Assembly: GCA_025352235.1 (NCBI GenBank) | Contig: JANXTU010000403.1 | Coordinates: forward strand, 1-63,794 | Source: Fimbriiglobus sp. | GTDB lineage: Bacteria; Planctomycetota; Planctomycetia; Gemmatales; Gemmataceae | Direction: 5' to 3' | DNA: 63,794 bases | Translations under genes and position numbers: made by a program | Notes under the pieces: model-generated | Database searches by the model: none | Told to the model about the DNA's origin: nothing | Seen by the model: the letters and a program-made list of their open reading frames with translations, nothing else | Part shown: one piece after another, positions 1 through 61,957 of the stretch | How the letters are laid out: each line of letters opens with the position of its first letter | Numbering within the stretch: the first letter of the stretch is position 1

Positions 1-2
1 GC

Positions 3-119
3 TACCTGGCCCGCGCGAGCGACCCGCCACCCGGGAACATGGTCGTCTGGCGTGGCCTCACCCGACTCGCCGACATCCTTCTCGGGTTCGAGTTGGACAG
101 ACAAGTTGTGGGTAATTGA
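3..119 (+). CDS. 3' end of an unidentified gene running off the window start (partial)
   Basis: Frame 3 reads YLARASDPPPGNMVVWRGLTRLADILLGFELDRQVVGN* with TGA at 117-119. About 30 of 38 codons end in G/C, like the confident genes here. No family recognised. Confidence 0.3.
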   Translation, partial: YLARASDPPPGNMVVWRGLTRLADILLGFELDRQVVGN

Positions 120-200
120 AAGATTCGCCGGACGTTTACGGTGTACTGTAATCCGGCGCGAAAATGGTAGTACCTTCCAATCACACAATTGGAGCGGGAC

Positions 201-1232
201 ATGGAACATCGCCAACTCGGTCGTTCGGGCTTCCTGGTCCCGGTGCTCAGCTTGGGCACCGGCACCTTCGGCGGCAGCGGGGAGTTCTTCAAAGCCTGGG
301 GCGACACGGACGCAAAGGGTGCGGCCAAACTCATCGACGTTTGTCTCGACGCTGGGCTGAACTTCTTCGACTCCGCCGACATTTACTCCGGCGGACTCGC
401 GGAAGAAGTGTTGGGCACCGCCATCCAAGGCCGGCGGGACAAGGTGCTGATTTCCACCAAGGCGACCTTCCGCAGCGGGGAAGGGCCGAACGATGTCGGC
501 TCGTCGCGCTTCCACATCGTGAAGTCGTGCGAGGCCGCTCTCAAAAGACTCGGCACCGACTACATCGATCTTTATCAGATGCACGCCTTCGACGCAATGA
601 CGCCGCCCGAAGAAACACTCGGGGCGCTCGACCACCTCGTGAAGGCCGGGAAAGTGCGCTACATCGGCTGCTCAAACTATTCCGGCTGGCACCTGATGAA
701 ATCGCTGGCGACATCGGAGCGCTACAATCTTCACCGTTATGTCGCGCACCAAGCCTACTATTCGCTCATCGGTCGCGACTATGAATGGGAACTGATGCCC
801 TTGGGATTGGATCAAGGCGTCGGCGCCGTCGTCTGGAGTCCGCTCGGCTGGGGCCGGCTCACGGGCAAGATTCGCCGGGGTCAACCGCTGCCGTCGTCGA
901 GCCGGTTGAACAACACGGTCGTCAACGAAAAGGGGCCGCAGGTGAGCGACGAATATCTATACGCCGTCGTCGATGCCCTCGATGCGGTGGCCAAGGATAC
1001 GGGTAAAACCGTCCCGCAGATCGCGCTCAATTGGCTGCTGCAACGCCCGACCGTGGCCAACGTCATCGTCGGTGCCCGCGATGAAACACAGTTGAAGGAA
1101 AACCTTGGCGCCATCGGCTGGAAGCTAACCTCCGAACAGATCGCCACGCTCGACGCGGCCAGCGCGACGCCGAAGACGTATCCCTACTGGCACCAAGCCG
1201 GTTTCTCGGAACGCAATCCATTCCCTGTCTAA
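201..1232 (+). CDS. aldo/keto reductase family oxidoreductase
   Basis: N-terminus MEHRQLGRSGFLVPVLSLGTGTFGG plus DSADIYSGG, LYQMHAFD and GCSNY blocks are typical of AKRs. GGAG at 191-194 precedes ATG 201; the ORF track starts at the upstream TTG 189. Confidence 0.9.
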   Translation: MEHRQLGRSGFLVPVLSLGTGTFGGSGEFFKAWGDTDAKGAAKLIDVCLDAGLNFFDSADIYSGGLAEEVLGTAIQGRRDKVLISTKATFRSGEGPNDVGSSRFHIVKSCEAALKRLGTDYIDLYQMHAFDAMTPPEETLGALDHLVKAGKVRYIGCSNYSGWHLMKSLATSERYNLHRYVAHQAYYSLIGRDYEWELMPLGLDQGVGAVVWSPLGWGRLTGKIRRGQPLPSSSRLNNTVVNEKGPQVSDEYLYAVVDALDAVAKDTGKTVPQIALNWLLQRPTVANVIVGARDETQLKENLGAIGWKLTSEQIATLDAASATPKTYPYWHQAGFSERNPFPV

Positions 1233-1248
1233 TTCGATTTGGAACACC

Positions 1249-2322
1249 ATGGCTTCGGCTCAGCTTTTCGAACCGCTCACGCTCCGCTCGGTGACGTTCC
1301 GCAACCGCATCGGGGTGTCGCCGATGTGCCAGTACAGTTGCACCGACGGGCTCGTCGGCGATTGGCACCTCGTGCACTTGGGTTCTCGCGCCATCGGCGG
1401 CGCGGGGCTCGTGATGGCCGAAGCCACTGCGGTCACTGCGGGGGGGCGTATTTCCCCCGGCGACACCGGCATTTGGAACGACGTGCAAAAAGAAGCATGG
1501 GAGAAAGTCGCCGGGTTCATTGCGGAACACGGCGCCGTGCCGGGGATACAACTCGCTCACGCGGGTTGGAAAGGATCGACCGCCGCGCCGTGGAAAGGCG
1601 GTAAAGCCGTTTCTGCGGCCGACGGCGGTTGGCAGCCCATCGGCGTTGGGGATGTTCCGTTCACCGATGGGTATCCCACTCCGAAAGCGATGTCCGAAAC
1701 CGACATCGACCGGGCCTGCGAAGCGTGGCACAGCGCGGCGGTCCGCGCCGTTGAAGCCGGGTTCCAGGTCATCGAAATCCACGCGGCGCACGGATACTTG
1801 TTCAACAGCTTTCTTTCGCCGCTGACCAACCACCGGACCGATGCCTATGGCGGGTCGTTCGAGAACCGCGCGAGATTCCTCCTCCGCGTGACGAACGATC
1901 TCCGCGCGACGATCCCGGCCGGGATGCCGCTGTTCGTCCGCTTGTCGTGCGTCGACTGGGTCGACGGCGGCTGGGCCCTCGACGACTCCATCCGACTCGC
2001 GATCCAGTTGAAGGAACTCGGCGTCGACCTCGTCGATTGCAGTTCCGGCGCGGTCAGTCCGACCGCGAAGATCCCCGTCGGCCCTGGATATCAAACCGCC
2101 TTCGCCGCTGCGATCCGGGCGCAGGCGAAGATTCCCACCGCCGCCGTGGGTATGATCAACGAGGCGCACCAAGCCGAGACGATCCTCCGCAGCGGCCAAG
2201 CCGATATGGTGTTTCTCGCGCGCGAAATGCTGCGCGACCCATACTGGCCCGGCCGTGCGGCCAAGGCACTCGGGGTCAAAACCGAAGGCTTGCTGCCCGT
2301 GCAATACGGGCGGGCTTGGTGA
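1249..2322 (+). CDS. NADH:flavin oxidoreductase, Old Yellow Enzyme family (YqjM/NamA-like)
   Basis: OYE signature blocks are present: FRNRIGVSPMCQY, GAGLVMAEAT, IQLAHAGWKGS, EIHAAHGYLFNSFLSPLTN, DMVFLAREMLRDPYW. Confidence 0.9.
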   Translation: MASAQLFEPLTLRSVTFRNRIGVSPMCQYSCTDGLVGDWHLVHLGSRAIGGAGLVMAEATAVTAGGRISPGDTGIWNDVQKEAWEKVAGFIAEHGAVPGIQLAHAGWKGSTAAPWKGGKAVSAADGGWQPIGVGDVPFTDGYPTPKAMSETDIDRACEAWHSAAVRAVEAGFQVIEIHAAHGYLFNSFLSPLTNHRTDAYGGSFENRARFLLRVTNDLRATIPAGMPLFVRLSCVDWVDGGWALDDSIRLAIQLKELGVDLVDCSSGAVSPTAKIPVGPGYQTAFAAAIRAQAKIPTAAVGMINEAHQAETILRSGQADMVFLAREMLRDPYWPGRAAKALGVKTEGLLPVQYGRAW

Positions 2323-8975: not shown

Positions 8976-11900
8976 TTGCCTGTTCGGAATTCGCTCAAAA
9001 TGGGATATAGTTGGATTGTGATCAATTCGATTCCAGTTCGACGGATCCTCCTGTTGGCCACAGTTGTGGCCGGCCTGTTCGTCGGCGGTTCGTCCGTAGG
9101 ACTCGCTCAGCCCACGCCCGCCCCAGAACCCACCAAAGCGGCGGCGATCAAACTGCCGGACGGCACGGTCGTCTTCTGGACGAAGAATCCGGACGAAGCG
9201 AACCCGGCCGTCGAAGGGGTCGTGCTCACCCCGCAAGAGTACAAGGCGTTGGTGGAACAAGCGGAATTGGCCAAGAAGGCCAAACCGCAGGCGCCGAGCG
9301 CCGTGGCCATCCGGGGGAAAATTGAGCCGCGCGGCGAACGCCTCGTCGCGGCGCTGTCGCTGACGTATTCCTTCCGGACGACGCAACCGCGTACGCTTCT
9401 GATACTCGGCTGCCAGCGGAGCGTGCTCGTCGCCGCGAAAACCGGCCAAGGGAAGTTACCGATTCTCAATCCGCCCGGCGACGAGGGGCTGACTCTCCTC
9501 GCCGATGCCGCAGGGGAACAAACGCTGACGCTCGACGTCGAGATCCCCATCGCGGCGCGGGGAGTCAAAAATGAGATCGGCTTCGACATCGGCTTGCCCC
9601 GCGCGGCCATCACCACCTTGAAACTTGACGCGGGCCCGGCCACCGGGATCAAATCCGTGGCGCTCGGGACGCGGATACCGGAGGTGGCGTCCCTCCTTCC
9701 GATACGCCCCAGCGAGGCGAAGCGATTCTCGGTCTCGGTCGAGCAACTCGTGGCCAAGCCGATACCGTTGGGCGCGACCGACCTGCTCGAACTCACATGG
9801 GAGCCGCTCTCCCCAACGTCCCCGAGCGCCGCGGCCCTGCCGACCCTCGATAGCGAGTTGATCGTGAACGTGGAGGAATCGCAAATCGAAACCGTGGCCA
9901 AGTTGAAACTGCGCGGCGCTTTCAAGGAATGGCCGCTGCAACTACCGGCGGGGTCGGACGTGACCGTGGAACGCGCGCCTACGCCCGGCGTCGGTCCGAC
10001 GGCCCAACCGGAACCGATGCCGCCGACGGTGCTGCGGCCCACCGACGCCAACAAGCCGGTGTGGGTCATCCGTACCCCCGGCGAGAATCCGGATGCGGAA
10101 TGGCTCGTCACGGCGACGCATCGCGTCCCGCGGCCGAAGCCCGGCGATCCCAAATTCCGAGGGCCGTACCTAGTCGGACCCTACGCCCTCGGGGTCAACG
10201 CGAAGCAATCGGGTCGGATCAACGTGTTCGCCGGCCCGACCGTGCGCTTGAGTTTCAAGCCGCTCCCCGAATTTCGCCGCCTCGATCTCCCCGCGGCGGC
10301 GACGGACGATCACATCGCCCAATTCGCATTCGCGGCGTTGGCCCCGCTTCCGCCGAACGGGCGGGCGGGCGCGTGGTTCGAAATCGACGCCCGCGTCGCC
10401 CCGACCGCCATCCGGGCCAAGTCGAACCACCAATTGAAACTGACGCCCGGAGGTTGGCGGTTGGAAACGACGGTTCGCATCGTCCCGCCGCCCCGGGGGG
10501 AACTGGAACAGATCGCCGTGGAAATCCCCGAAGGTTGGTCGGCGCTCGAAGCCTCCCCGGAAGAATTGGTCGAGAGCATCCACATCGTGAAGGACGGGTC
10601 GCCGCGGCTCTGGGGCATCCGATTCCACACGGCTCAGAAATCGGCGTTCACGCTGAAGTTGCTGGCGACGTTTCCGCTGCCGATCAAGTCGGGGACGCTG
10701 GAGGAACGCGAGTCGAAGCTAGCACTGGCCTTGCCGAGGTTCCCGCAAGCCGACGAACGCGAAACGATCCTCGCGGCGACCGTGCCGGACGGCTTCGAAC
10801 TCCGCGGCAACGCCGCGTTGTGGGAAGGGGGCCAGCCCTCCGCCGCCAGCGATCCGTTGACCCCGTCGATCGGGGGGGCGAATCGAGCGGCCATCACCGC
10901 CGTCGGCGGGACGTTCGACCGGGCCGTCGCCCGCGTCGAGTTGAGCTGGCAAACGCACCGCCCCGCCCTCGCCGTCGAGAACCGGGTCGATGTTTCGCTG
11001 CAACCGCGGCAATTGTTCATCCAACAGGTATTGAAGTTCAAACCGAGCCAAGACGACCGCCGCACGATTCGCCTCCGCGGGCCCGAACATCTCCTCGGGT
11101 TGCAGTCCGTCCCCGCGCTCGACCCCGTCGGGCCGGGGCGTTGGGAGTTCCGTTCGAATGCGGAACCGGGCAAAGAATTCACCCTGACCGTCGCATTCGC
11201 CCTGCGGTTAGCGAACTCCGAGGCCGACCCGGCCGTGTTCTTGCTCTGGCCGGAATCGGCGACGCGGATCGATTCGGTATTGCGCCTCTGGGGCGGGGGC
11301 ACCGGGCGCCGGGTCGAGAAGTACGCGGGGGATTGGCGCGAACTCCCTTCCGAACCCGTCCCCGAGCGTGATGCGTTGCCACTGCTCACGCTGGCGGCAT
11401 CGGGTGCAGGGGCGCCGCTGACGCTCGACCTGAGTGCACTCGGCGATTCGGGACTGCCCACCGTCTGGGTCGAGCGCGCCTACGTCCGCGGCACCGTCGC
11501 CGAGTCCGGTCTCGTGCTCCAAGAAAAACTTTTGCTGAAGCGCTGGCTCGGATCGAGTTTGGACGTGGAATTGCCCCGGGTCGACAGTCTCGAAGTGTGG
11601 ATCGAAGGGAGACCGGTCGAAGCGATCCCGCAGCCGGCGTCCGCCGATTCCCCGGAACTTTGGTCGTTGACGGTGCCGTTGCCGGAATCGAAACCGAACA
11701 AGCCGCTGGTCGTGGAACTCCGCTACCGGACAGCGAGCGCGAAATCGAACTACCGGGAACGGCTCTGCGTGCCGCCGAAGATCCGCGGAGCGGTGTACCG
11801 GACGCCCGTCCGGTGGCTGCTGGCGACCGACTCCGACCAAATGGCGTTCATCCCTTCGGGCCGTTGGGATCCGGAGTTCCGCTGGGCGCGGCGCGGTTTC

Positions 11901-12482
11901 GGCTTCGCCCCGACGGCGGCCGAATCCCCCCAAGAATTGGATGCCTGGCTGACCGCCGGCACGGAAACCGAGTCGGGTGAACCGTACCCGTGGCAGCGCA
12001 CCGGCGGCGACTCGATCGCCGGGAGGCAATCCGATCCGCAACCCGTCCCCGTGATGTTGATCCCGAAGTCCGCGTGGATCGCCGGTTGGTCGACAGCGGT
12101 GTTCGCGATCGGTTGGGCGTTGTCCCGACTCCGCAAGCGGCGGCTCGGCGTCGCGCTCGCGTTGACCGGAATCGGTCTCGCCCTCGCCGGAGCCCTCGCC
12201 CCGCAGGGGTTGGCCCAAGCGCTCGCAGGCACGCCGCTCGGCGCGGCGGCGCTCGCGCTGACTTTGGCCGCCGGCTTCACCTGGCGATTCTACCGCCTCC
12301 GTTCCGTCGAGCGATTGCCCGGATTCAGCCGCGAACGCCAGCGTCCGACCTCGGTGCGGGCCACCGAGATACCAGTCGCCGACCCCGAGAGTGGCCAACG
12401 CGCTTCGCGCGGTCCGGGCGCCGCGGCCCAACCCCGCAGCGGTGCGGGGAGTATCGCCCCGCCCGTTTCGATGGGAGGTTGA
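8976..12482 (+). CDS. giant envelope protein 1: N-terminal signal/anchor, about 1000-aa ectodomain, C-terminal TM cluster; no recognised domain
   Basis: The frame is open for 1168 aa with strong G/C third-position bias. A hydrophobic N-terminus (RRILLLATVVAGLFVGGSSVGLAQP) and a C-terminal hydrophobic cluster (AWIAGWSTAVFAIGWAL..LGVALALTGIGLALAGAL..AAALALTLAAGF) are present. ATG 9000 is an alternative start. Confidence 0.7.
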   Translation: MPVRNSLKMGYSWIVINSIPVRRILLLATVVAGLFVGGSSVGLAQPTPAPEPTKAAAIKLPDGTVVFWTKNPDEANPAVEGVVLTPQEYKALVEQAELAKKAKPQAPSAVAIRGKIEPRGERLVAALSLTYSFRTTQPRTLLILGCQRSVLVAAKTGQGKLPILNPPGDEGLTLLADAAGEQTLTLDVEIPIAARGVKNEIGFDIGLPRAAITTLKLDAGPATGIKSVALGTRIPEVASLLPIRPSEAKRFSVSVEQLVAKPIPLGATDLLELTWEPLSPTSPSAAALPTLDSELIVNVEESQIETVAKLKLRGAFKEWPLQLPAGSDVTVERAPTPGVGPTAQPEPMPPTVLRPTDANKPVWVIRTPGENPDAEWLVTATHRVPRPKPGDPKFRGPYLVGPYALGVNAKQSGRINVFAGPTVRLSFKPLPEFRRLDLPAAATDDHIAQFAFAALAPLPPNGRAGAWFEIDARVAPTAIRAKSNHQLKLTPGGWRLETTVRIVPPPRGELEQIAVEIPEGWSALEASPEELVESIHIVKDGSPRLWGIRFHTAQKSAFTLKLLATFPLPIKSGTLEERESKLALALPRFPQADERETILAATVPDGFELRGNAALWEGGQPSAASDPLTPSIGGANRAAITAVGGTFDRAVARVELSWQTHRPALAVENRVDVSLQPRQLFIQQVLKFKPSQDDRRTIRLRGPEHLLGLQSVPALDPVGPGRWEFRSNAEPGKEFTLTVAFALRLANSEADPAVFLLWPESATRIDSVLRLWGGGTGRRVEKYAGDWRELPSEPVPERDALPLLTLAASGAGAPLTLDLSALGDSGLPTVWVERAYVRGTVAESGLVLQEKLLLKRWLGSSLDVELPRVDSLEVWIEGRPVEAIPQPASADSPELWSLTVPLPESKPNKPLVVELRYRTASAKSNYRERLCVPPKIRGAVYRTPVRWLLATDSDQMAFIPSGRWDPEFRWARRGFGFAPTAAESPQELDAWLTAGTETESGEPYPWQRTGGDSIAGRQSDPQPVPVMLIPKSAWIAGWSTAVFAIGWALSRLRKRRLGVALALTGIGLALAGALAPQGLAQALAGTPLGAAALALTLAAGFTWRFYRLRSVERLPGFSRERQRPTSVRATEIPVADPESGQRASRGPGAAAQPRSGAGSIAPPVSMGG

Positions 12483-12484
12483 CC

Positions 12485-15400
12485 GTGTTCGCACGTCGCT
12501 ACCTCTGCGTCGCCGCAGTTGGCTTGCTCTTGGGCGCCGCGGCAGCGGCGCTCCCGGGTCGACCGCGCGGGACTCCGGTGTATGCGGCCGCACTCGGGGG
12601 GAGCGCGCTGGCCCCGGATGTGGATCCTCTCCCCGATCCCTTCCCGATCCAACGCATCTTTTTACCGGTCGCGCGCCCCGAGCGATTGAAGCCTGAAATC
12701 GTCCAAGGCACGTATCGCTCGCTCTCCAAGTTCGAGTTCGAGGCGAAAGTTCAAGCGGCGGCGCGCGAACGGATCGCGGCGCAGAATCCCCCGCGCTTGC
12801 TCGAGGCGACTTACCGGGCTTCCGTCGAATCGGGGCGCGTGTTCGGCACGGCCGATTGGACGCTGGGTCACCCGTCGAACACCGGCGGCGCGATGGCGAT
12901 CGACCCGCTCCCAGGTGCGATCCATTCGCCCAAATGGACCGACGGCTCGACGCCGATCTTGTACCGGAGCCCGGCCGGTGGCAAGCCACCGGCCCCGACC
13001 TACCTCTGGGTCGAAGGGCCGATGCAAAGTCGCTTCGAGTTTCAATGGTCGACCCGGATTGTGGAACAACCGGACGAAGAGCGTTGTGCGCTGACTTTCC
13101 CGGCGTCCCCGATCGCCTCGCTCGAACTGACTTTGGACGCGGCCCGCATTCCGAGGCTCGACGCGCCGGGGGCGTTGCTCACGGGGCCGTTTCCCGCCGC
13201 AACGGGAGACAAGCGACTTTGGAAGGTGGCGTTCGGCGGCCGGACGCAACTGGATTTGGCCTTCCGTCAAGGGCTGACCACCGACGATTCCAAAGCCGCT
13301 GTCCGAGCGACCTGCGCCGCGAGTTGGAAACTGCTCCGCTCCGAAACTGAGGGCCGGTTCGATATCACCCTCCAGTCGACGCGACAGGGTAGCCGGCAAC
13401 GGATCTTCCGGGTCGATCCCGGAGTGCAGATTACGGGCGTCACCGGGCCGGCGGTCGAAAGTTGGCAATGGGATGGCGGATCGCCCACTCGGGAATTGAC
13501 TGTCCGGTTACGCGATGACGCGCAACCGGCCCGATTCGCCATCACCGTGCGGGCGCCGGCCGCGCTCGCATCCGGGAGTTGGACCCCGCCCCAGATCCGG
13601 CTCGCCGACGGTTTCACCCGCGGGGAGAGCATCGAAATTCTACTCGCCCCGGAATGCAAACTGGACGGCTGGCAACCGTGGGATTATCGGATCGGATCGA
13701 CCGCGACGGCGGCGGATCATTCGACGAAACTCGAATTCGTCCCGGCCCTCGCGGCGACCGAGGGCCGGGTCGACCGACGGCCGCCGACGATCCGCATCCG
13801 CGCGAGCGATCGCGAATTCACGACGGTGGAAACACTCGATTGGCGATTGGAACCGGGCCGGACGAAGGTCGCGTTGACCTGCGTGGCCACGGTCGTCCGC
13901 GGTCCGATTCCGAGCTTCGCGTTCCAAGCTCCGGCGGGATATATTTTGGTGAACGCCGCGATTTCACCCGATGATCCGGGTGTCGCGTTCGGGGTTCAAC
14001 CGGGTTTGTCCAACGGTTGGTTCGTCGAGCCGACCCGCGCCGTCGCGTCCGGATCGAGCCTCGAAATCCGTTTGGAGTTCCGTACCGCCGGCGCGGCGAT
14101 CCCGCTCGATTCCACCCGGTCGGATCTCGGCCGGTTCGTGCCGATTCCCAAAATCGTGCCCGTCGGCGCCGCGCAGCGCCAGGGTGCGATCTCCGTTCGC
14201 CCCGCTCCCGGCGTCAAAGTTGCGCCGGCCGCTTCGGATACGAACGCCGTGCCGCCGGTAGGCGAACCGGGCTACACGTGGAGCTTTCGCGGTCGCGAAC
14301 CCGACCTCGAAGTTTTCGTGACGCGTGCGAAGCTAGCGATTTCGGCAGTTTCGGAGACTTCGCTGACCGGTACGGCCTCGCTCTGGCAAATCGCTTCGAC
14401 CGTGCGGGGGCGGGCCGAAGGCGCCCCCTTGGGATCGATGCTCGTTTGGGTCCCCGGCGCGACCGCGACTTGGGCACTCGACCCGGGGGCTGTGGCGAAC
14501 CGCGTGCCCGGCGACGCTCTGCTGCCTTGGCTGGCGTATTTCGCCGCGGGTCAACGCGGTTTTGGAGTCGCCCTCGCGGCGGTTGCCCAGCCCGAGCCGG
14601 GCACACTCTGGAAGATCTCGTTCGGCAAGCCTCTCGCGGGCGATTTCACCTGCCGAGTCGAATGTGCGGTCCCGCGCCGGTTCGGCGACCGCGTCATTCC
14701 GCTCCCACATTTTCTCGGGGCGTCGATGGCCGATGAGACGGTGAAACTCGACCCGGACTCGGCTCGGAAGTTCCGCGCGGAGCGCACCGACCATCGGCCG
14801 GACGCGCGGCCGTACATCTTACTTTCATCGAAGGAATTAGACCCCGCGGAAGTCGCCACTTCGGCGGGGCGCGCGTGGGTTTATCGCAATTTGCAGCTCC
14901 AAGGCCGAATCGAATCGGACGGCGTCCGTTTCACGCTCCGCGGAGTCGTCGCGGAAACCGGGGCGGCGAGATTGCCGATCGCACTCGGCGGAGCCGGACT
15001 GGAATCGGTGACCCTCGACGGGAAACTCGTGGTCCTCACCGCCGCCGAATTGGAAAATTCCGGTGTGCCGATCCGGGCCGGCACGGAAATCGAAGTTTGC
15101 TTCCTCGCTCCGGGCCGACGGGACGACTTCGCCCCGATCGCCGTGGCGGACGCGACGCTGGCTCCGTTGCCCGGCGGACCCGAAATCTCGCGGACTTGGA
15201 TCGCCGGTTCGGACCTCCGCAGTTGGCCGAGCCTCGAAACCGGCGAACTGAACGAACGGGCGGAGCGGGTACAATTCGTCCGCGAATCGACCGTCGCGGC
15301 GGCGGCCCGGATTGCGGCGGTGCTACTCGCATTTCCCATTCTGATCGGAGTCGCGTCGTCCCGTTACCGCGCAACGCTCATCGCGGCTCTCGCGGTCTCG

Positions 15401-17578
15401 ACCGCGCTCGGGTTCGCTTTATGGCTGGCCCCGCCGGGCTGGAGCTCGGCGTTGCGCCCCCCGCTGTTCATCGCCCTGGGCGGGGCCGCAATCGCGCTCT
15501 GGTTCCAACCGGTGCACCGACCGACGAGTTCCGGGCTCGTGTGGATCGTCGCCGCGTCGGTGTTCGCCTCCGACGGGATTGCCCAAGCGCCGGAAACGGT
15601 GGTGGTTTACGTGGTGCCCGGCCCGAGCGACGCTGAAGGATACCGGGTCTTGGTTCCCAAAACGGCGCTCGACAAACTCGACGCGCTCGCCCGGCCGGGA
15701 GTTCCAACGCTGGCGATCCTTTCGGCGGAATACGAGTGTCTCGCCGCCGGGGAAACTGTGAATGTCCAAGCGAAGTTTCAAATCCTGTCCCAAAAAGCGG
15801 ACGAACAAATTCTCGCGCTCCCTTTGGCGGGGGTGCGGCTCGAAAAGGCCATGCTCGACGGTCGGGATGCGTTCCCGGACGCGGGCCAACCCGACCGCTA
15901 CCTTGTGGCGATCCGCGGCGCGGGGCGTCACGAATTGATCGCGAGCTTCGCCGTGCCCGTGCAATCGGCGGGAATCGACCGCGATGCCAAGTTCGGCGCG
16001 CCCGATCTCCCCATCGCCCGCGTTTCATTCGCGGCGGGATTGCGCGGCCGTCAACTCGACGTTCCGTCTCGGCGCGGTGGCCAATCGCTGCGGGTGAGCG
16101 CCGACGGCCTGCGCGTGGAAGCGGATCACGGCGGCGGCCGCACGATGCAACTTCATTGGCGAGAACGCGGGATTGCTGACGGAGCCAAACCCACCGTGAC
16201 GGTGAAAGAAGGGGCCGTGTGGGACCTCGGCGAAACGAATTCCACGCTCGCGGCCGCATGGCAATACCGCGTCGAGGGCGGGACCTTGAGCACGTTAAAA
16301 ATCGAATGGCCCGCGCACGTGCCGCCCACGCGGGTGAGCCTCGTCTCGGCGCAGGGGGGGCCGCTCGATTCGGGCGTCCGCAATTGGAATGTCGGCCCGT
16401 CCGCCAACGGCACCGTCCCCATCGAAGTGAAGTTGCAATCGGCCTTGGAAGGGCGTTTCACGCTGATTGTTAAGGGGGATTCGACGGAGATCCCTTCGGC
16501 GAAACCCGTGCTGCACTTCCCGCGGTGCGCCGATGTCGCGGAGTCTGACCGGGATAGCTTCCATGCTGTGCGCTTCGCCGGGGTGAAATCCGAAGGTGTT
16601 GTCGTCGGCGGCGCCATCGATTTCCCCGCCGATGCCGTGGCCCGCGAGTTCGCCAACGTTCCCGAATTCCAATTCGCGAAATCCCCGCCCGCCCGGGTCG
16701 TCCGCCGGGCCGCGGGCCAAGCGACCGAACTCCGGCCGACGCTGTTGCCCAACGCCGCTTACCAACCGTTGGCCGGGGAGGCCACCTACACGATCGGCCG
16801 ACGGATCGGCGTCGAAGGGACGATGCGTGCTTCGGCCAAAGAATCGGGGAGCGTGGAGTTCGACGTGCCCGCCGATGTGCAACTGAACGACGTTTGGGCG
16901 ACTGAATTGGCCGGCTGGTCGCGCGCCGGTTCGCGCGTCCAAGTCTGGTTGGCCCGACCGGTGCCCGAAGTGATCATCCGCTGGTCGGGGCTATTGCCGA
17001 ATGCGACCCCGGCCGAGGGGATCGTCGAATTGCCGCTTCCGCGTTGGCCCTCCACCGTGGCCAAGCTCGCCGAACCGTTGACGGTCCGCGTGCGCGCCGC
17101 ATCCGGTTGGTCGATCCAGCCGATCCCCGTCGTCGGGTTGAAAACGCAACCGGCCCCGCTCCCGGACGACTGGGTTTTGACCGCAGAATCGGATCGGATC
17201 TCCGCCGTCAAGTTCACCGCGAAGTTCAGTCCGAAATTCGAATCGGTCGCCGAACGGCCGAAGCCAATCGCCCCGACCCCGGCGCCGCCAGCGGTCGCGG
17301 CATCGCCGTCCGACGTCATCGAAAAACCGGAGCCGATTCCGAGCGGGTCGCTGTGGCCGGGCATCTGGCTCTTCGGCGTCCTCGCGGTGGCCGCACTCGC
17401 CGGTCTCGGAAGTCGGCGTTGGCGACCCGAGATGTTCCTGCTGCTGGGCGCGGTCGCCGCGGCAATCCTCGGCATCGAATCGCTTGAGGCGATCCCGTTT
17501 TGGTCCGTCGCCGCGTACGGCGCTGCGCTGAGAGGATTTCGGGGCGTGCGGTGGTTGCTGCGCGGCGAAGAGATGTGA
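12485..17578 (+). CDS. giant envelope protein 2 (about 1697 aa): two further copies of the unit seen in protein 1
   Basis: GTG 12485 lies 2 nt after the TGA of the upstream gene and opens onto a signal-like VFARRYLCVAAVGLLLGAAAAALPG. Internal TM cluster at about 15290-15560 and C-terminal TM cluster at about 17340-17530. The ORF-track start at 11990 overlaps the upstream gene and is rejected. Confidence 0.7.
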   Translation: MFARRYLCVAAVGLLLGAAAAALPGRPRGTPVYAAALGGSALAPDVDPLPDPFPIQRIFLPVARPERLKPEIVQGTYRSLSKFEFEAKVQAAARERIAAQNPPRLLEATYRASVESGRVFGTADWTLGHPSNTGGAMAIDPLPGAIHSPKWTDGSTPILYRSPAGGKPPAPTYLWVEGPMQSRFEFQWSTRIVEQPDEERCALTFPASPIASLELTLDAARIPRLDAPGALLTGPFPAATGDKRLWKVAFGGRTQLDLAFRQGLTTDDSKAAVRATCAASWKLLRSETEGRFDITLQSTRQGSRQRIFRVDPGVQITGVTGPAVESWQWDGGSPTRELTVRLRDDAQPARFAITVRAPAALASGSWTPPQIRLADGFTRGESIEILLAPECKLDGWQPWDYRIGSTATAADHSTKLEFVPALAATEGRVDRRPPTIRIRASDREFTTVETLDWRLEPGRTKVALTCVATVVRGPIPSFAFQAPAGYILVNAAISPDDPGVAFGVQPGLSNGWFVEPTRAVASGSSLEIRLEFRTAGAAIPLDSTRSDLGRFVPIPKIVPVGAAQRQGAISVRPAPGVKVAPAASDTNAVPPVGEPGYTWSFRGREPDLEVFVTRAKLAISAVSETSLTGTASLWQIASTVRGRAEGAPLGSMLVWVPGATATWALDPGAVANRVPGDALLPWLAYFAAGQRGFGVALAAVAQPEPGTLWKISFGKPLAGDFTCRVECAVPRRFGDRVIPLPHFLGASMADETVKLDPDSARKFRAERTDHRPDARPYILLSSKELDPAEVATSAGRAWVYRNLQLQGRIESDGVRFTLRGVVAETGAARLPIALGGAGLESVTLDGKLVVLTAAELENSGVPIRAGTEIEVCFLAPGRRDDFAPIAVADATLAPLPGGPEISRTWIAGSDLRSWPSLETGELNERAERVQFVRESTVAAAARIAAVLLAFPILIGVASSRYRATLIAALAVSTALGFALWLAPPGWSSALRPPLFIALGGAAIALWFQPVHRPTSSGLVWIVAASVFASDGIAQAPETVVVYVVPGPSDAEGYRVLVPKTALDKLDALARPGVPTLAILSAEYECLAAGETVNVQAKFQILSQKADEQILALPLAGVRLEKAMLDGRDAFPDAGQPDRYLVAIRGAGRHELIASFAVPVQSAGIDRDAKFGAPDLPIARVSFAAGLRGRQLDVPSRRGGQSLRVSADGLRVEADHGGGRTMQLHWRERGIADGAKPTVTVKEGAVWDLGETNSTLAAAWQYRVEGGTLSTLKIEWPAHVPPTRVSLVSAQGGPLDSGVRNWNVGPSANGTVPIEVKLQSALEGRFTLIVKGDSTEIPSAKPVLHFPRCADVAESDRDSFHAVRFAGVKSEGVVVGGAIDFPADAVAREFANVPEFQFAKSPPARVVRRAAGQATELRPTLLPNAAYQPLAGEATYTIGRRIGVEGTMRASAKESGSVEFDVPADVQLNDVWATELAGWSRAGSRVQVWLARPVPEVIIRWSGLLPNATPAEGIVELPLPRWPSTVAKLAEPLTVRVRAASGWSIQPIPVVGLKTQPAPLPDDWVLTAESDRISAVKFTAKFSPKFESVAERPKPIAPTPAPPAVAASPSDVIEKPEPIPSGSLWPGIWLFGVLAVAALAGLGSRRWRPEMFLLLGAVAAAILGIESLEAIPFWSVAAYGAALRGFRGVRWLLRGEEM

Positions 17579-17581
17579 AGT

Positions 17582-18217
17582 TCAATCGTCGTCGCGGACG
17601 CGCCGCGCCCGCTGCGGGGATTCGTCGTCCGCATCGCGATCCCGGCGCGGTTCGCGATCCCGTTCTCGTTTGGCCGCGCGCCGTTCCTGCCGCGCTTCTT
17701 CATCGCGATCCCGCTCTTCTTCCAAGGCGACGATGAAGTTTTCGTGGACGCCCACCAACGTGATGTCCCGGTCCGTGATTTCCTTTGGTCGGACGCTTGT
17801 ATTCTGCAAAATCAATGCGACGATCAACACGAAGAACAACCCGACCCCGGCCGCCAGCGCGGTGTAGAGTCCGATGTCGGGGCCTTGGTTTCGCCCGCCG
17901 GGCTCGTTGGACAGCACGAGGCCGACGACGACCAAGCCGATGCAACCGAGGACGCCGAACAGGGCGAAGAGCTGCCGCCAGAGCCAATGGCCCTTCTTGC
18001 CCGGAACGATCGGGACATCGACGGTGATGTCTTTGCGCAGGATCATCGCCACGATGAGGTACGGCAACAACCCGCCTAGAATCAAAATGTTGACCCACGG
18101 CGGCGTCCAACGGAACGTCCGCCGCTTGATGTCGGTCGTGGGCTCGCCGGTGACGACGCAGACCTGCGGGAGGAGGTTGTTTTGAACTTCGTATCGGGTG
18201 ATGCGGACAGTCGCCAT
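17582..18217 (-). CDS. membrane protein with an Arg/Asp/Glu-rich C-terminal tail (hypothetical)
   Basis: Three hydrophobic helices: WVNILILGGLLPYLIVAMIL, LFALFGVLGCIGLVVVGLVL and LYTALAAGVGLFFVLIVALIL. The tail reads EERDRDEEARQERRAAKRERDREPRRDRDADDE. The start is chosen at MATVRI; upstream Met codons at 18283 and 18406 are possible. Confidence 0.6.
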   Translation of the reverse strand: MATVRITRYEVQNNLLPQVCVVTGEPTTDIKRRTFRWTPPWVNILILGGLLPYLIVAMILRKDITVDVPIVPGKKGHWLWRQLFALFGVLGCIGLVVVGLVLSNEPGGRNQGPDIGLYTALAAGVGLFFVLIVALILQNTSVRPKEITDRDITLVGVHENFIVALEEERDRDEEARQERRAAKRERDREPRRDRDADDESPQRARRVRDDD

Positions 18218-18372
18218 GGTGTGTCCCCGCCGATGAAATACTTCAGGAACAAAGTATCTGGAATCGGGCGGAACGTCCTTCATCCGGAATTCACCGGTCC
18301 GATTGGGGCAATCCCTATGCTGACCGTGGTCGCTGATTCCCGGCGACGTCCCGACTCCGAACCGAGACGCAC

Positions 18373-19341
18373 ATGACACGCTTTTTGCTCGTCGCCGCGT
18401 TCGCATTGACCATCGGCACGGCTATCGCCGCCGACGAAGCGCCGCTGACACTTTCGAAAACCATCGCGATGAAAGGCGTCGACGGCAAGCTCGACCACCT
18501 CGCGGTCGATTCCAAGGGCGAACGTCTGTTCGTCGCCAATAAGCCAAACAACACGCTCGACATCGTCGATTTGAAAACCGGCAAGCTTGTCAAGCAGATC
18601 GCCGACCAAGGCAAGATTTCCGGCGTCGCCTACGCCGCCGACCTCGACATGGTCTACGCGGGCAACGGCGCCGGGACCTGCAACGGCTTCGCGGGCGCCG
18701 ACTACAAACTGGCCTTCTCGACCAAAGCCCCCGGCGCCGACAACGTGCACTACAACTCGGAAACCAAACTCGTGTACGTCGGTTGCGGCGAAACGCTGAT
18801 GGTCTTGGACGCCAAGACCGGCGAAGCCAAGACCTCGATCAAACTCCCCGGCGCCGTGCACGGGTTCAAGATCGACAAAAAAGCCGGGAAGATTTTCGCC
18901 GTGCTCACGAAGCCGAGTGTCGTCGCCGTCATCGATTTGGCCAAGAACGAAGTGACCGAGAAATTCCCGCTCACGCTCTCGGACGCCGGCAGCCCCATCG
19001 CCTACGACGCGGCCAACGGGCTGCTGTTCGTCGGTTGCCCGAAGAAAGCGATGGTCGTGGTGTTCGACGCCAAGACCGGCAAGGAACTGGCCGGTGTCGA
19101 AATCCCCGCGGGCATCGACGACATCCACTACGACTCGAAACTCAAACGGATCTACGCCTCGTGCGGCGATGGCGCGCTGTGCGTCCTGGAAAAGAAGGGT
19201 GAGAAATACGAAGTGACGACCAAGCTGGAAACGCCGAAGTCGTCTCGCACCTGCGTCTTCGGCAGCGGCAAAGTCTACTTGGGCGTGCCGAAATCGAAGG
19301 ATTTGGAAGGCCCAGAGATCCGCGTCTACGACGCGAAGTGA
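18373..19341 (+). CDS. secreted YVTN/YncE-like beta-propeller protein
   Basis: Signal peptide MTRFLLVAAFALTIGTAIAA. Repeated blades have the pattern 'hLAVDskgeRLFVAN...l.vvDl.tGk', as in YncE/YVTN repeats. Confidence 0.75.
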   Translation: MTRFLLVAAFALTIGTAIAADEAPLTLSKTIAMKGVDGKLDHLAVDSKGERLFVANKPNNTLDIVDLKTGKLVKQIADQGKISGVAYAADLDMVYAGNGAGTCNGFAGADYKLAFSTKAPGADNVHYNSETKLVYVGCGETLMVLDAKTGEAKTSIKLPGAVHGFKIDKKAGKIFAVLTKPSVVAVIDLAKNEVTEKFPLTLSDAGSPIAYDAANGLLFVGCPKKAMVVVFDAKTGKELAGVEIPAGIDDIHYDSKLKRIYASCGDGALCVLEKKGEKYEVTTKLETPKSSRTCVFGSGKVYLGVPKSKDLEGPEIRVYDAK

Positions 19342-23894: not shown

Positions 23895-24818
23895 ATGCCC
23901 CTCCCCAAACTTTTGATTACGATGGGCGATTGTGCCGGGATCGGCCCGGAAATCATCGCGACGGCATGGCCGCAATTGCGCGTGCTCTGTCACCCCGTTG
24001 TCATCGGCGACCCGTGCAAGCTGCCCCCGGGTCTCGAGTGCCTCAATCCTTCGACGGCGGATTTGTCGAAGGTCGTTCTCGGGAAGGTTTCCGCCGAGGC
24101 GGGACGGGCCGCGTTCGATTGGCTCGTCTTCGCCATCGACGAGTGCCGCGCGGGCCGCGCCGATGGAATCGTCACCTGCCCGTTGAACAAGGAAGGCCTG
24201 CACGCGGCGGGCGTTCCGTTCCCCGGCCATACCGAAATTCTCGCCCATCGCACCGGGGCGAAATCGCACGCGATGCTGCTGTACGACGACGAACTCCAAC
24301 TCGCCGTGGCCCATGTGACGCTGCACCAATCGGTGCGGACGGCGGTCGCGGGCATCACCGTCGACTCGGTCCTCGACAAGATCCGCCTGCTGCGCGACAT
24401 CGTCCCGCGGCTCACCGGCGCCGCCGCACGGATCGGGGTGGCGGCGCTCAACCCGCACGCCTCCGACGGCGGATTGTTCGGCGACGAAGAATCCCGTATC
24501 ATCGCCCCCGCAGTGGAACGGGCGAGGGCCGAAGGGATCGACGCGACCGGGCCGATCGCCGCCGATGCGATATTTTTGCCGCACAACCGGGCGAAGTTTA
24601 ACGGCATCGCGGCGATGATCCACGATCACGGCCACATCGCCATGAAATTGCTCGGGGGCCGCCGGGCGGTGAATGTGACCGCGGGGTTGCCCATCGTGCG
24701 GACGAGCGTCGCCCACGGCACGGCCTACGACATCGCGGGGCAGGGCAACGCCGACGCCGGGAGTTTGATCGCCGCGGTGAAAGTCGCGGCGAGGTTGTCC
24801 AACCGAGGAACACTATGA
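23895..24818 (+). CDS. pdxA: 4-hydroxythreonine-4-phosphate dehydrogenase
   Basis: MPLPKLLITMGDCAGIGPEII..., FPGHTEILA, NPHASDGGLFG and the IHDHGHIAMK..V.TSVAHGTAYDIAG blocks are typical of PdxA. The start is chosen at ATG 23895, not the ORF-track extension at 23700. Confidence 0.9.
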   Translation: MPLPKLLITMGDCAGIGPEIIATAWPQLRVLCHPVVIGDPCKLPPGLECLNPSTADLSKVVLGKVSAEAGRAAFDWLVFAIDECRAGRADGIVTCPLNKEGLHAAGVPFPGHTEILAHRTGAKSHAMLLYDDELQLAVAHVTLHQSVRTAVAGITVDSVLDKIRLLRDIVPRLTGAAARIGVAALNPHASDGGLFGDEESRIIAPAVERARAEGIDATGPIAADAIFLPHNRAKFNGIAAMIHDHGHIAMKLLGGRRAVNVTAGLPIVRTSVAHGTAYDIAGQGNADAGSLIAAVKVAARLSNRGTL

Positions 24819-25750
24819 ACGAAAACGAAATGGCCCCGGACCGCGACGATCCGCCGCGCCGTCGCCGGGACGAATCTGACGACGAACGCCCGCCGGCCCC
24901 GCCGGGCAATGGCATGGCCACGGCGTCGCTGGTTCTCGGAGTCCTATCGCTCTGCGGGGGGATCGCCTCGATACCGGGTTTGATCTGCGGCATCGTCGGG
25001 TTGGGCCGGGCGAACCGGCGCGGCGGGTCGGGCTTCGGCATGGCCATCGCGGGGATGGTGCTGTCCGGCATCGGTCTGCTCACGGCTTTCCCGCTGCTGA
25101 TCGCACTGCTCCTTCCCGCGGTTCAGAAAGTCCGCGAAGCCGCGGCGCGGAAATCGAGTGCCAATAATCTGAAGCAGTTGAGCATCGCACAGATGAACTA
25201 CGAATCGGCAAACGGCGAAAACCCCAAAGCCTTCCATTACCAAGGCCAGCCCGGCGGGGAGCCGGCGAAACTGACTGACCGCCTGAGTTGGCGCGTGGCG
25301 ATGTTGCCCTATCTCGAACAAGAGAATGTGTATCGGCTCTTTCGCCTCGACGAGCCGTGGAACAGCCCGAACAACCAACCGCTGTCGACGTACAGTATCA
25401 AGACGTTCATCCACCCCTCCGACGCCCCGCCCGAACCGACCACGCGCTACCGGATCTTTTACGGCGGCGGAGCCGGGTACGACCTCCAGCGCCGTGTTCC
25501 CCTCCAAGATGGCGATTCGAACACCATCGCCATCGTCGAAGGGGGCGACCGCGTGACGTGGAGCCAGTTCAACGAATACCCGTTCAGCAAAGATGGCCCG
25601 CTGCCGGCGCTCGGCTTGCCGAACTCCGACGTCTTTCAAGCCGCGATGTTCGACGGCAGCATCCGGACCTTCCGCAAATCGATCGATCCGAACGTGTTGA
25701 AGAGCGCCATCCACGCCGCCGATAGCGTCGGAGCGCCCCTCGGCGAATGA
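24815..25750 (+). CDS. DUF4190-like two-TM hairpin fused to a DUF1559 (H-X9-DG, pseudopilin-like) domain
   Basis: Charged tail (DRDDPPRRRRDESDDERP), then DUF4190-type ATASLVLGVLSLCGGIASIPGLICGIVGL...GMAIAGMVLSGIGLL, then the DUF1559 hallmark LLLPAVQKVREAAARKSSANNLKQLSIA, LSWRVAMLPYLEQ and DGDSNTIAIVEG. ATG 24815 overlaps the pdxA stop (ATGA). Confidence 0.8.
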   Translation: MNENEMAPDRDDPPRRRRDESDDERPPAPPGNGMATASLVLGVLSLCGGIASIPGLICGIVGLGRANRRGGSGFGMAIAGMVLSGIGLLTAFPLLIALLLPAVQKVREAAARKSSANNLKQLSIAQMNYESANGENPKAFHYQGQPGGEPAKLTDRLSWRVAMLPYLEQENVYRLFRLDEPWNSPNNQPLSTYSIKTFIHPSDAPPEPTTRYRIFYGGGAGYDLQRRVPLQDGDSNTIAIVEGGDRVTWSQFNEYPFSKDGPLPALGLPNSDVFQAAMFDGSIRTFRKSIDPNVLKSAIHAADSVGAPLGE

Positions 25751-25766
25751 CCCCAAGAGAGATGCC

Positions 25767-26774
25767 ATGCCCCGCGAGCGTGACGAAATTGACGACGACG
25801 ATGACAGCCCGCGCCGGCGTTCCCGCCGCGATGAGGACGACGAGGATGACGACCGTCCGCGCCGATCCGCCCGCCGGGGCTCGGCCGACGACGAGGACGC
25901 GCCGGTCCGGGCGACCGGAAGTAACGGCTTGGCGACCACGTCGCTGGTCTTCGGAATCTTGTCGTTCTGCACGGGGATCACGTTCATTCCCGGCCTGATC
26001 TGCGGATTCATGGGGCTGTCCAAAGCGCGGACGAGCGGCGTCGGCAAGGGTATGGCCATCGCGGGGATTTTGACGTCCCTCGTCGGGTTCGTCGTGTCGG
26101 GTGCGGTTGCCGCTGGCGGGTATTTCTTGTACGTCCAGAAGCAAAAACTCGATGAGCGGATGGTCGCTCAAAACAACTTCAAGCAACTCGGCATCGCAAC
26201 GCACAACAACAGCGATGCCACCGGATTTTTACCCAAGCCGTACCTCGATGAATCGAGACGCGACTCGGACCCACCCCTCGCGGAAAGCGCGATGAAGACC
26301 AAACTGAGCTGGCGCGTGACTCTGTTGCCGTATTTGGAACAAGCATCGCTTCACACCCGGTTCCAACGCTCGGAGGCTTGGGATAGTCCCGCGAATAAGC
26401 CACTGTCGCAGACGGTCGTCCGGCAATACGCCGATACCGATACGCCTCTCGATCCGGCCACGCGCGTGCGCTGCTTCTACGACAACGGCGCGATCTTCGA
26501 CAGCCGCTTCAAGATTACCCTCAACGGCGTCACCGACGGCACAGCCAACACGATCCTATACGTTGAAGGGAGCGACAAAGCCCCGTGGAGCCAGTTCAAC
26601 GAACTCAAGTTCGATCCCAAAGGGGCGCTTCCGGCGTTGGGCTATCCGAACCGCGATACGTTCACCGTCCTCACGGCCGACGGATCGACGCGCCAATTGC
26701 GGAAGTCGATCAACCCGGCCACGCTCAAAGCCCTCATCACCCGGGCGGGTGGTGAAGTCGTCGGAGACTATTGA
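25767..26774 (+). CDS. DUF4190-like/DUF1559 fusion protein, tandem paralog
   Basis: Same layout as the upstream gene: acidic/basic tail (RERDEIDDDDDSPRRRSRRDEDDEDDD), LATTSLVFGILSFCTGITFIPGLICGFMGL...GMAIAGILTSLVG, then NNFKQLGIATHN, LSWRVTLLPYLEQ and DGTANTILYVEG. Confidence 0.8.
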   Translation: MPRERDEIDDDDDSPRRRSRRDEDDEDDDRPRRSARRGSADDEDAPVRATGSNGLATTSLVFGILSFCTGITFIPGLICGFMGLSKARTSGVGKGMAIAGILTSLVGFVVSGAVAAGGYFLYVQKQKLDERMVAQNNFKQLGIATHNNSDATGFLPKPYLDESRRDSDPPLAESAMKTKLSWRVTLLPYLEQASLHTRFQRSEAWDSPANKPLSQTVVRQYADTDTPLDPATRVRCFYDNGAIFDSRFKITLNGVTDGTANTILYVEGSDKAPWSQFNELKFDPKGALPALGYPNRDTFTVLTADGSTRQLRKSINPATLKALITRAGGEVVGDY

Positions 26775-32306: not shown

Positions 32307-32520
32307 GTCCACTTTCACGACGACGGAATCGAAGCTTACAGGGACCGGTTTACCGCCTGCATCCGCGATTGCAAGATACCGGATTCCGCCTTCGCCGATC
32401 GTGACGGCTCGGCGCCCCGACACTTCTCGACATTCGCTCGCTGGTTACTGGCCCGGCCCCGCCGTCGGTTTAAGATGGGCAGAGATTGCGGGTTGTCCGG
32501 GACTCTATGCGAGCCGATCC

Positions 32521-61805: not shown

Positions 61806-61957
61806 CGGCGCATTCTCCGGCGGTCACCGGCTCGGGTCGGGCCCGACGATCCGCGTGCGACGTAAATATAGGGCAAAGGTGGCGCCGGCGCTGGACAAAA
61901 GCGAGTCATAGACGGGAACTTCCCGACCGCAACGTGAAATCGACCGAAATCGGGGGA

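Follow-up and report, generated by a model that had tools for sequence, protein, structure and literature searches.

Two translationally coupled giant genes of Gemmataceae encode three homologous units of a predicted membrane-anchored beta-sandwich design

In a 63,794-nucleotide (nt) stretch of a Fimbriiglobus sp. assembly (contig JANXTU010000403.1, hereafter the window), two adjoining large genes, which we call P1 and P2, are real genes under purifying selection. On the evidence of profile comparison, P1 (unit A) and the two halves of P2 (units B and C) are three copies of one architecture, a triplication that is real and ancient. We propose that P1 and P2 form a two-gene module for a non-catalytic heteromeric scaffold of fixed stoichiometry in the inner membrane, a reading to which we give an even chance of being correct.

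A preliminary description of this stretch, made from the letters alone, had claimed that the same architecture occurs three times and that P2 is a fusion of two P1-like subunits. BLASTP of P1 against P2, and of P2 against itself, found no significant similarity. We built family alignments from 42 P1 homologues and 27 P2 homologues, split the P2 alignment at residue 1030, and compared the resulting profiles with hhalign. At this level A and B match collinearly (A 7-1101 on B 3-1013; 99.6% probability, E 7e-24) at 15% identity, B matches C (B 105-586 on C 48-521; 97.7% probability, E 2.4e-12), and A matches C (A 82-322 on C 29-252; 94.6% probability, E 6.5e-8). Reversed-profile controls reached best E-values of 0.008 to 0.5, confined to transmembrane segments. 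Because the E-values of the true comparisons are far better than those of the controls, we regard the triplication as genuine. The repeated architecture is therefore visible to profile-profile comparison and not to BLASTP. The mutual similarity of the three units, on which the preliminary description had staked its proposal, is significant at profile level, and all three pairwise matches support the fusion. The border between B and C, placed earlier near nt 15580, falls at two conserved residues, A1033 and Q1034 (nt 15581-15586). The peptide strings quoted earlier as examples are all present in the translations.

The units also repeat internally. Within A, residues 260-588 match 643-935 (E 2e-6), and within B, residues 280-603 match 452-802 (E 4e-10). 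From these repeats we estimate domains of approximately 170-200 residues, with about five each in A and B and about three in C.

The start of P1 probably differs from that first assumed. Read from TTG 8976, the protein has 1168 amino acids (aa); read from ATG 9000, it has 1160 aa, begins MGYSW and fits the alignment of homologues better, making ATG 9000 the more probable start. P2, which starts with GTG and is read in a frame other than that of P1, encodes 1697 aa. The earlier size of P2 therefore stands, while that of P1 applies only from the TTG. A mechanical open reading frame (ORF) of P2 begins at 11990, overlaps the end of P1 and gives 1862 aa; the frame is open for about 500 nt upstream of the GTG (11990-12484, plus strand) and is there Arg/Pro-rich, with the look of an out-of-frame translation. 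We rejected 11990 as the start, taking the extension to be a high-GC artefact and GTG 12485 to be the real start. The GC content at third codon positions (GC3) of both genes is 0.75-0.80, as in neighboring genes.

The two genes are separated, as had been described, by TGA-CC-GTG (12480-12487), so that the gap from stop to start is 2 nt, and a Shine-Dalgarno sequence, GGGAGG, lies inside the last codons of P1. Together with conservation of the junction among relatives, this supports the translational coupling proposed at the outset. The conserved Gly-rich C-terminal end of P1 (window 12450-12482; consensus ...P-S-G) coincides with the Shine-Dalgarno sequence of P2, and its apparent protein conservation may really be that of an RNA signal. 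Promoter and terminator scans returned nothing exceeding shuffled expectation.

We then asked how widely the pair occurs. A word-indexed search returned 97 homologues of P1 and 54 of P2, all annotated as hypothetical or carrying no name and all lacking a Pfam domain, and an exhaustive profile search of 50%-identity cluster representatives returned 3027 representatives at E ≤ 1e-3, of which 948 reached E ≤ 1e-30. Among public genomes, the nearest relative is a Fimbriiglobus metagenome-assembled genome (MAG), whose P1 is 92% identical. Named homologues are nearly all from Gemmataceae (Fimbriiglobus, Gemmata, Urbifossiella and Limnoglobus). Related loci were gathered with 13 closer sequences and two peptide patterns that favor close relatives, so the taxonomic range given here is a minimum.

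We searched hidden Markov models of A, B and C against six-frame ORFs of the 28 fetched loci. Wherever enough downstream sequence was available, and with the exception of one clade, A is followed by a fused B-C on the same strand; this order was seen in Fimbriiglobus, Limnoglobus, Urbifossiella and other Gemmatales. Orthologous pairs, whose scarcity would have counted against the original proposal, are thus common across Gemmataceae, with A and B-C adjoining. No separate B and C genes were found among the 28 loci or the 54 P2 homologues. The distance from stop to start is -4 to +6 nt in 17 of the 18 other paired loci; in four of these the two genes overlap as ATGA or TGATG, and a G-rich, Shine-Dalgarno-like sequence usually lies within the last P1 codons. 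The flanking genes are wholly different between Fimbriiglobus ruber, Urbifossiella limnaea and metagenomic contigs. Because the flanks vary while the pair persists, the conserved unit is the pair itself.

Several loci deserve separate mention. In 8 of 17 other paired loci (L005, L010, L016, L017, L018, L022, L024 and L025), P1 and P2 are read in one frame with just one stop codon between them, while the pair in the window is read in different frames; as 8 of 17 is close to the one third expected by chance, we do not propose a readthrough fusion of P1 and P2. In the Gemmataceae MAG STL-PLA23 (L026:8659-17802), A is split in two and the fragments of B and C lie in different frames, which reflects either a pseudogene or an assembly or frameshift error. 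A full-length P1 homologue is labeled 'Bacteroidales bacterium' (P0062), and a contig with a partial match at 59% is labeled 'Alcaligenaceae' (L027). Since the distribution is otherwise strictly Gemmataceae, these labels probably reflect errors of MAG binning.

When the databases were searched a third time from the P1 alignment, a single new protein emerged, P0288 (P0288 / P0289), from a Victivallaceae MAG (Lentisphaerota). This 2072-aa protein is a distant two-unit fused relative, and the probability of its match to B is 91%. Its layout runs from a signal peptide through approximately 870 aa of beta structure, a central helix cluster ending F-S-A-Q-A-G-G and approximately 950 aa of further beta structure to a C-terminal transmembrane helix. 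Its gene directly follows those of an extracytoplasmic function (ECF) sigma factor and an anti-sigma protein with zf-HC2, vWA and YfbK_C domains. The find suggests that the proteins form a wider superfamily among the Planctomycetes-Verrucomicrobia-Chlamydiae (PVC) bacteria, with a possible tie to envelope signaling.

Searches against known families were negative throughout. Neither whole protein contained a Pfam (E ≤ 1) or NCBIfam domain, and Pfam found no match in ten domain-sized fragments at E ≤ 10, in any of the 42 P1 and 27 P2 alignment members or in variants of approximately 2400 aa. BatD and the DUF4139 and DUF4140 (MuiA-like) families, the first two named earlier as families to which a confident match would refute the proposal, were thus without a match in the whole proteins, the fragments or the 69 homologues, as was Ribophorin_I (PF04597). 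The Pfam scans of P1 and P2 likewise gave no integrin FG-GAP repeat, no MG domain of the alpha-2-macroglobulin/TEP kind (the CGEQ thioester motif is also absent), no Big, cadherin or other adhesin domain, and no outer-membrane or peptidoglycan-binding domain. PADLOC defense-protein models did not match P1 or P2, and family profiles searched against PDB sequences at E ≤ 10 returned only noise. A literature search (ribophorin, BatD, DUF4139, crateriform structures, planctomycetes) found no paper describing this family.

Conservation within the family points away from catalysis. Most of the invariant residues are P, G, W, R, L or F; P1 adds a single Gln and P2 a few A, E and Y. The 42 P1 and 27 P2 homologues contain no conserved Cys/His/Asp/Ser cluster such as would mark a catalytic or metal site. 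From this pattern, A, B and C appear to be non-catalytic. Conservation peaks in the membrane-distal 150 or so residues of each unit and is lowest near and in the membrane. Compared with the closest relative, the N-terminal part of P2 has a ratio of nonsynonymous to synonymous substitution rates (dN/dS) of 0.33; the lower value for P1 is given in Table 1. P1 has no N-x-S/T sequons, an absence that is not statistically significant (P = 0.10).

In the membrane-distal tip of A, K51-T56, V74, L76, L84 and K93 are invariant or nearly so across the 42 homologues, and the V-x-L-(S/T)-P-x-E-Y motif that comes after KLPDGT hardly varies either. This segment lies within the most conserved 50-residue windows and has low AlphaFold2 confidence when modeled as a monomer, a combination typical of a segment that folds against a partner. 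The tip of unit B carries the motif DPFPIxRxFL ... EFEAxVRAAA. At the other end of P1, F1109 of the L-P-G-F-S-R motif is invariant, and at least 90% of sequences keep P1107 and R1111. The tail that holds this motif is rich in lysine and arginine and disordered in the AlphaFold2 model, and a sizeable cytoplasmic tail is predicted only in P1.

The hydrophobic clusters lie where they had been placed (P1 aa 1023-1104, nt 12066-12311; P2 aa 937-1033, nt 15293-15583; and P2 aa 1623-1690, nt 17351-17554). They had been counted as two to four helices at the end of each unit; we count three in each, and a further internal helix, signal-like in character, lies between B and C. Across the 42 and 27 homologues, predicted cytoplasmic loops carry 1.5-2.1 lysines and arginines per 5-11 residues and predicted periplasmic loops 0-1. 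This charge pattern fits a topology in which, for each unit, the ectodomain is out and the three transmembrane (TM) helices end in, out and in, respectively, and every anchor is predicted to lie in the cytoplasmic membrane.

Each unit also opens with a signal-like segment, as first described, with a conserved A/Q site (an alanine followed by a glutamine, the slash marking the candidate cut) in P1 and inside P2. The A/G-Q-P motif after the P1 segment is conserved across the 42 homologues, and A1033 and Q1034 are each conserved in at least 90% of P2 homologues. Signal peptidase I follows the -3/-1 rule, and a proline at +1 blocks cleavage. A cut after A1035 would be barred by the proline at +1, leaving A1033/Q1034 as the apparent sole site that obeys the rule. 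Because the internal helix ends in an A/Q context shared with the P1 signal peptide, unit C looks like it retains an ancestral signal peptide, and P2 may be cut into B and C after membrane insertion.

AlphaFold2 models were built for P1 (md732f6518ced; predicted local distance difference test score, pLDDT, 79.4) and unit C (m729c127ded33; pLDDT 82.0). Both begin with a hydrophobic helix, which is followed by a short leader of low confidence, a module of two short strands and one helix, a long beta region and three long C-terminal helices. The ectodomain of the P1 model consists nearly entirely of strands, and both models are almost purely beta over the stretch that had been called beta-rich. 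The predicted template modelling score (pTM) is 0.42 in both, so the placement of domains relative to each other is unreliable.

With Foldseek, both models rank the same chains first (6s7o_E, 8b6l_O, 6ezn_A and 6c26_1), with E-values of 5.8e-9 to 3.6e-11 (3.6e-11 for unit C) and a probability of 1.00 over 430-500 columns. Judging by the entries, chain lengths and chain naming, we take these chains to be ribophorin I/Ost1 of the oligosaccharyltransferase (OST). The next matches are integrin-alpha legs, ITIH1, the N-domain of M1 aminopeptidases and leukotriene A4 (LTA4) hydrolase, and chain T of 7w72, a glycosylphosphatidylinositol (GPI) transamidase, which is presumably PIGT. TEP1 and complement C5 match the P1 model weakly (probability 0.44-0.47), and viral models (BFVD) gave generic repeat arrays only. 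The OST-chain matches have approximately 10% identity and global template modelling scores (TM-scores) of 0.13-0.31; with identity and scores this low, they are matches of one or two domains. At that level, the models predict a row of beta-sandwich domains like those of ribophorin I and the M1-aminopeptidase N-domain, a type of sandwich known for non-catalytic scaffolding or substrate holding. The 'unrecognised unit' of the preliminary description thus holds for the sequence and fails for the fold, which is recognizable.

Based on this information, we propose the following mechanism. A and B-C would be made in fixed proportion from one mRNA, and each unit would be exported through Sec by its own signal sequence, with the internal signal of unit C re-exporting the chain and doubling as a fourth helix after unit B. 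The beta-sandwich arm of each unit would then be periplasmic, with its three-helix anchor in the cytoplasmic membrane and its C-terminus inside the cell. Signal peptidase I may cut at the A/Q sites, which would make P2 a polyprotein that yields separate B and C. The three units would probably assemble 1:1:1, via their helix bundles or distal tip modules, into an asymmetric three-armed periplasmic scaffold whose conserved tips would be the working end, binding a wall, outer-membrane or periplasmic partner. As only P1 has the conserved tail motif LPGFSR, only P1 could contact the cell interior. The hetero-oligomeric, envelope-spanning assembly put forward in the preliminary description is likewise something we infer.

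Several observations weigh against this proposal. Arm lengths vary independently between genomes: Limnoglobus-type B lacks one domain (approximately 200 profile columns) while A keeps five, B and C are longer in F. ruber, and a metagenomic P2 variant has 2382 aa with a C unit of approximately 1085 aa. At five loci (L011, L012, L013, L015 and L019), A-type genes have no B-C downstream. These solo genes are approximately 40-45% identical to P1 (e.g., L012:14-3412 and L015:6390-9653); at L015, the next genes encode a Ser/Thr kinase and an unrelated protein, neither related to B or C. From this clade, A can apparently exist without an adjacent partner, and the solo genes together with the independent arm lengths count against a rigid symmetric machine. 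The pTM noted above makes the inter-domain arrangement unreliable, the global TM-scores of 0.1-0.3 keep the structural matches at the level of one or two domains, and topology and cleavage are deduced from hydropathy, the positive-inside rule and motif conservation.

The same solo genes and variable arms would fit a reading in which A and B-C are simply duplicated genes that have stayed side by side in one transcript, their products working independently in periplasmic binding or sensing and forming no complex. We consider this unlikely, if the most serious of the alternatives, since the stop-start junction is kept in 17 of the 18 other paired loci and the B-C fusion is universal. Together these features suggest that a fixed stoichiometry has been selected for, as is typical where subunits belong to a single complex.

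Two further alternatives, both a step less probable, concern what the arms do. One takes the units to be ribophorin-like accessory subunits whose arms hold or present an exported polypeptide or glycan to a membrane transferase or peptidase encoded elsewhere. In its support, Ost1/ribophorin I chains come first for two independently built models (E 6e-9 and 3.6e-11; probability 1.00), with PIGT and M1-aminopeptidase N-domains following, and Ost1, whose two similar luminal beta domains bind glycosylated peptide (PMC7226087), has the same order of signal peptide, beta domains and C-terminal anchor. However, no enzyme gene is conserved beside the pair at any locus examined, and Pfam Ribophorin_I is not matched. 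The anchors have three TM helices rather than one, with five domains rather than two, and the fold is generic enough that integrin legs and aminopeptidase N-domains match it too.

The other alternative is a tether or spacer that spans the periplasm from the membrane to the wall or the outer membrane, like the planctomycete 'press-stud' contacts. Judging by domain number, an arm of about five sandwiches could span the periplasm; the tips are the conserved part, and the genes sit in a core chromosomal context. Planctomycetes have an enlarged periplasm and, at crateriform structures, press-stud contacts between outer and inner membranes whose protein components are left unnamed in the study concerned (PMC5394234). 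Against a tether, crateriform structures occur throughout the phylum, but named matches of the close family all come from Gemmataceae; arm lengths vary; and Pfam detects no outer-membrane or peptidoglycan-binding domain.

A bolder version of the scaffold reading is a long shot. It would make the module a lineage-specific pseudo-threefold heterotrimer with P2 as a true polyprotein cut by signal peptidase at its internal signal, in which ribophorin-I-type arms tether or organize the unusual cytoplasmic-membrane and outer-membrane architecture of Gemmataceae, or else a bacterial relative of the non-catalytic luminal subunits of eukaryotic OST and GPI transamidase. If it were true, the two-unit fusions in Lentisphaerota would make the pair a PVC-wide envelope module.

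We think it very improbable that the pair is a diverged BatD / vWA-MoxR 'aerotolerance'-type system, or a set of DUF4139-like proteins, beyond sequence detection. The general layout resembles that of BatD, and the Victivallaceae relative adjoins an anti-sigma protein with vWA and YfbK_C domains, but no BatD or DUF4139 profile matches at the thresholds given above, and genes for BatA/BatB (vWA), BatC, MoxR or DUF58 are absent from the flanks of the pair, both in the window and at other examined loci. Least probable of all is a surface adhesin, an S-layer-like protein or a protease trap of the alpha-2-macroglobulin/TEP kind outside the cell: long beta-sandwich arrays are typical of adhesins, and TEP1 and C5 are among the weaker Foldseek matches, but the multi-helix C-terminal anchors with positive-inside loops would place the proteins in the cytoplasmic membrane, the CGEQ motif and adhesin domains are absent, and the TEP/C5 probabilities are below 0.5.

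Table 1. Features of the P1-P2 gene pair in the window (plus strand throughout; residues are numbered within each protein, P1 from ATG 9000).
Feature	Nucleotides	Residues	Strand	Basis and remarks
Gene P1 (unit A)	8976-12482		+	ORF; 97 full-length homologues; dN/dS 0.21
Predicted Sec signal peptide of P1	9000-9107	1-36	+	hydrophobic aa 16-34; likely signal peptidase I site G-L-A36/Q37-P38
Membrane-distal tip module of A (predicted)	9144-9284		+	KLPDGT strand, V-x-L-(S/T)-P strand, helix QEYKxLxEQxEQLKK
All-beta ectodomain of A (predicted)	9294-12065	~99-1022	+	about five beta-sandwich domains; AlphaFold2 model, internal repeat, Foldseek
Membrane anchor of A (predicted)	12066-12311		+	helices 1023-1042, 1046-1066 and 1079-1104; short interfacial helix 1068-1076
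Predicted cytoplasmic tail of P1	12312-12479		+	L-P-G-F-S-R at aa 1106-1111 (nt 12315-12332); holds the Shine-Dalgarno sequence of P2
Coupling junction	12473-12487		+	GGGAGG 12473-12478; P1 stop TGA 12480-12482; P2 start GTG 12485-12487
Gene P2 (fused unit B + unit C)	12485-17578		+	translation; 54 homologues
Unit B signal peptide, tip and about five beta-sandwich domains (predicted)	12485-15292	1-936	+	hhalign versus A; internal repeat
Three-helix membrane anchor of B (predicted)	15293-15514	937-1010	+	hydropathy; alignment block; positive-inside pattern
Internal signal-like helix	15533-15583	1017-1033	+	ends G-I-A1033/Q1034-A-P-E-P; candidate signal peptidase site
Unit C	15584-17575		+	AlphaFold2 model; hhalign versus B and A; Foldseek; positive-inside pattern
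Unit C tip module (predicted)		1036-1075	+	
Unit C beta-sandwich domains, about three (predicted)		1076-1581	+	
Unit C Pro-rich linker		1585-1621	+	
Unit C three-helix anchor (predicted)	17354-17572	1624-1696	+	hydropathy; AlphaFold2

The window is planctomycete core chromosome, with PSCyt1/PSCyt2/PSD1, DUF1559, gyrA, der, asd, pdxA and thyX. The pair itself is flanked by thyX, an ABC ATPase gene and genes for a PSCyt/PSD1 protein and a WD40/PQQ-like protein. No STT3/PglB-like Pfam match was found in 29 of the approximately 45 window genes (the nine nearest the pair included) or in the called genes of the other loci examined, and the window contains no Rfam families or tRNAs. A convergent ORF on the minus strand (17582-18406) ends 3 nt past the P2 stop; it has a GC3 of 0.75 and no Pfam match, and its hydrophobic stretches suggest a small membrane protein, probably starting at an internal ATG. 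Elsewhere in the window are two tandem paralogous genes, each encoding DUF4190 and DUF1559 (SBP_bac_10) domains (24815-26774, plus strand), a gene for a 1184-aa Sortilin/Vps10-BNR repeat protein (32185-35739, plus strand) and two adjoining Ser/Thr protein kinase genes of 866 and 463 aa (59205-63349, minus strand).

The Gemmataceae have a debated cell plan, with an enlarged periplasm, deep membrane invaginations and contacts between outer and inner membranes of unnamed composition (PMC5394234). Roughly two thirds of Gemmataceae genes lack an assigned function, the share in F. ruber being 68.9%, and genes of more than 5 kb are common in the phylum (PMC12673574). Conserved, core-chromosomal and under purifying selection, the pair is a concrete candidate for an envelope-organizing complex, and it defines a sequence family of approximately 950 strong matches (E ≤ 1e-30) among the cluster representatives searched, for which Pfam and NCBIfam offer no matching model. 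The link to the ribophorin I fold should not be over-read.

Compared with known systems, the units share with ribophorin I/Ost1 a signal peptide, tandem non-cytoplasmic beta-sandwiches, a C-terminal anchor and the lack of a catalytic site. Unlike ribophorin I/Ost1, which has two domains and one TM helix, they have three to five domains and three TM helices, with no STT3-like partner nearby. The N-domain of M1 aminopeptidases and LTA4 hydrolase (2gtq, 2dq6 and 3chp) gives single-domain matches with a probability of 1.00 over 200-280 columns and is a non-catalytic sandwich that walls the substrate site; there, one such domain is attached to a zinc peptidase, whereas the present units repeat the domain and gave no match to a peptidase domain or an HExxH motif family. 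The thigh and calf of integrin alpha match over 500-1100 columns. Integrins are heteromeric, membrane-anchored ectodomain scaffolds with a sandwich chain, a membrane anchor and a short tail bearing a conserved membrane-proximal motif; unlike P1 and P2, they have a beta-propeller head with FG-GAP repeats and one TM helix, and with TM-scores of approximately 0.1 we treat the likeness as an analogy, not family membership.

Among bacterial envelope proteins, BatD and the DUF4139/DUF4140 proteins have a signal peptide, a beta-rich ectodomain and a membrane anchor. P1 and P2 differ from BatD (PF13584) and DUF4139/DUF4140 in giving no profile match at any threshold tried and in having no Bat, MoxR or vWA operon partners. 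PorM/GldM of type IX secretion has an N-terminal inner-membrane anchor and a chain of periplasmic beta-sandwiches and is a homodimer working with the PorL motor; the units here would resemble it as predicted inner-membrane-anchored chains of periplasmic beta-sandwiches, but they carry their anchors at the C-terminus, come as three paralogues, and show neither a conserved acidic TM residue nor a motor partner. For the proposed processing of P2, the cytochrome b/c1 precursor FbcH of Bradyrhizobium offers a precedent: an internal signal sequence re-exports its second half, and cleavage gives two subunits of one complex. FbcH belongs to an unrelated family, and its cleavage has been demonstrated, whereas that of P2 is proposed. 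A membrane-anchored chain of beta-sandwiches is a familiar kind of envelope protein, and giant hypothetical genes are usual in this group. The repeat number, three-helix anchor and triple-paralogue layout match none of the families compared, and the pair is set apart by its triple-paralogue design, by a B-C fusion that is universal and keeps an internal signal-like sequence, by the conserved coupling and by the ribophorin-type fold.

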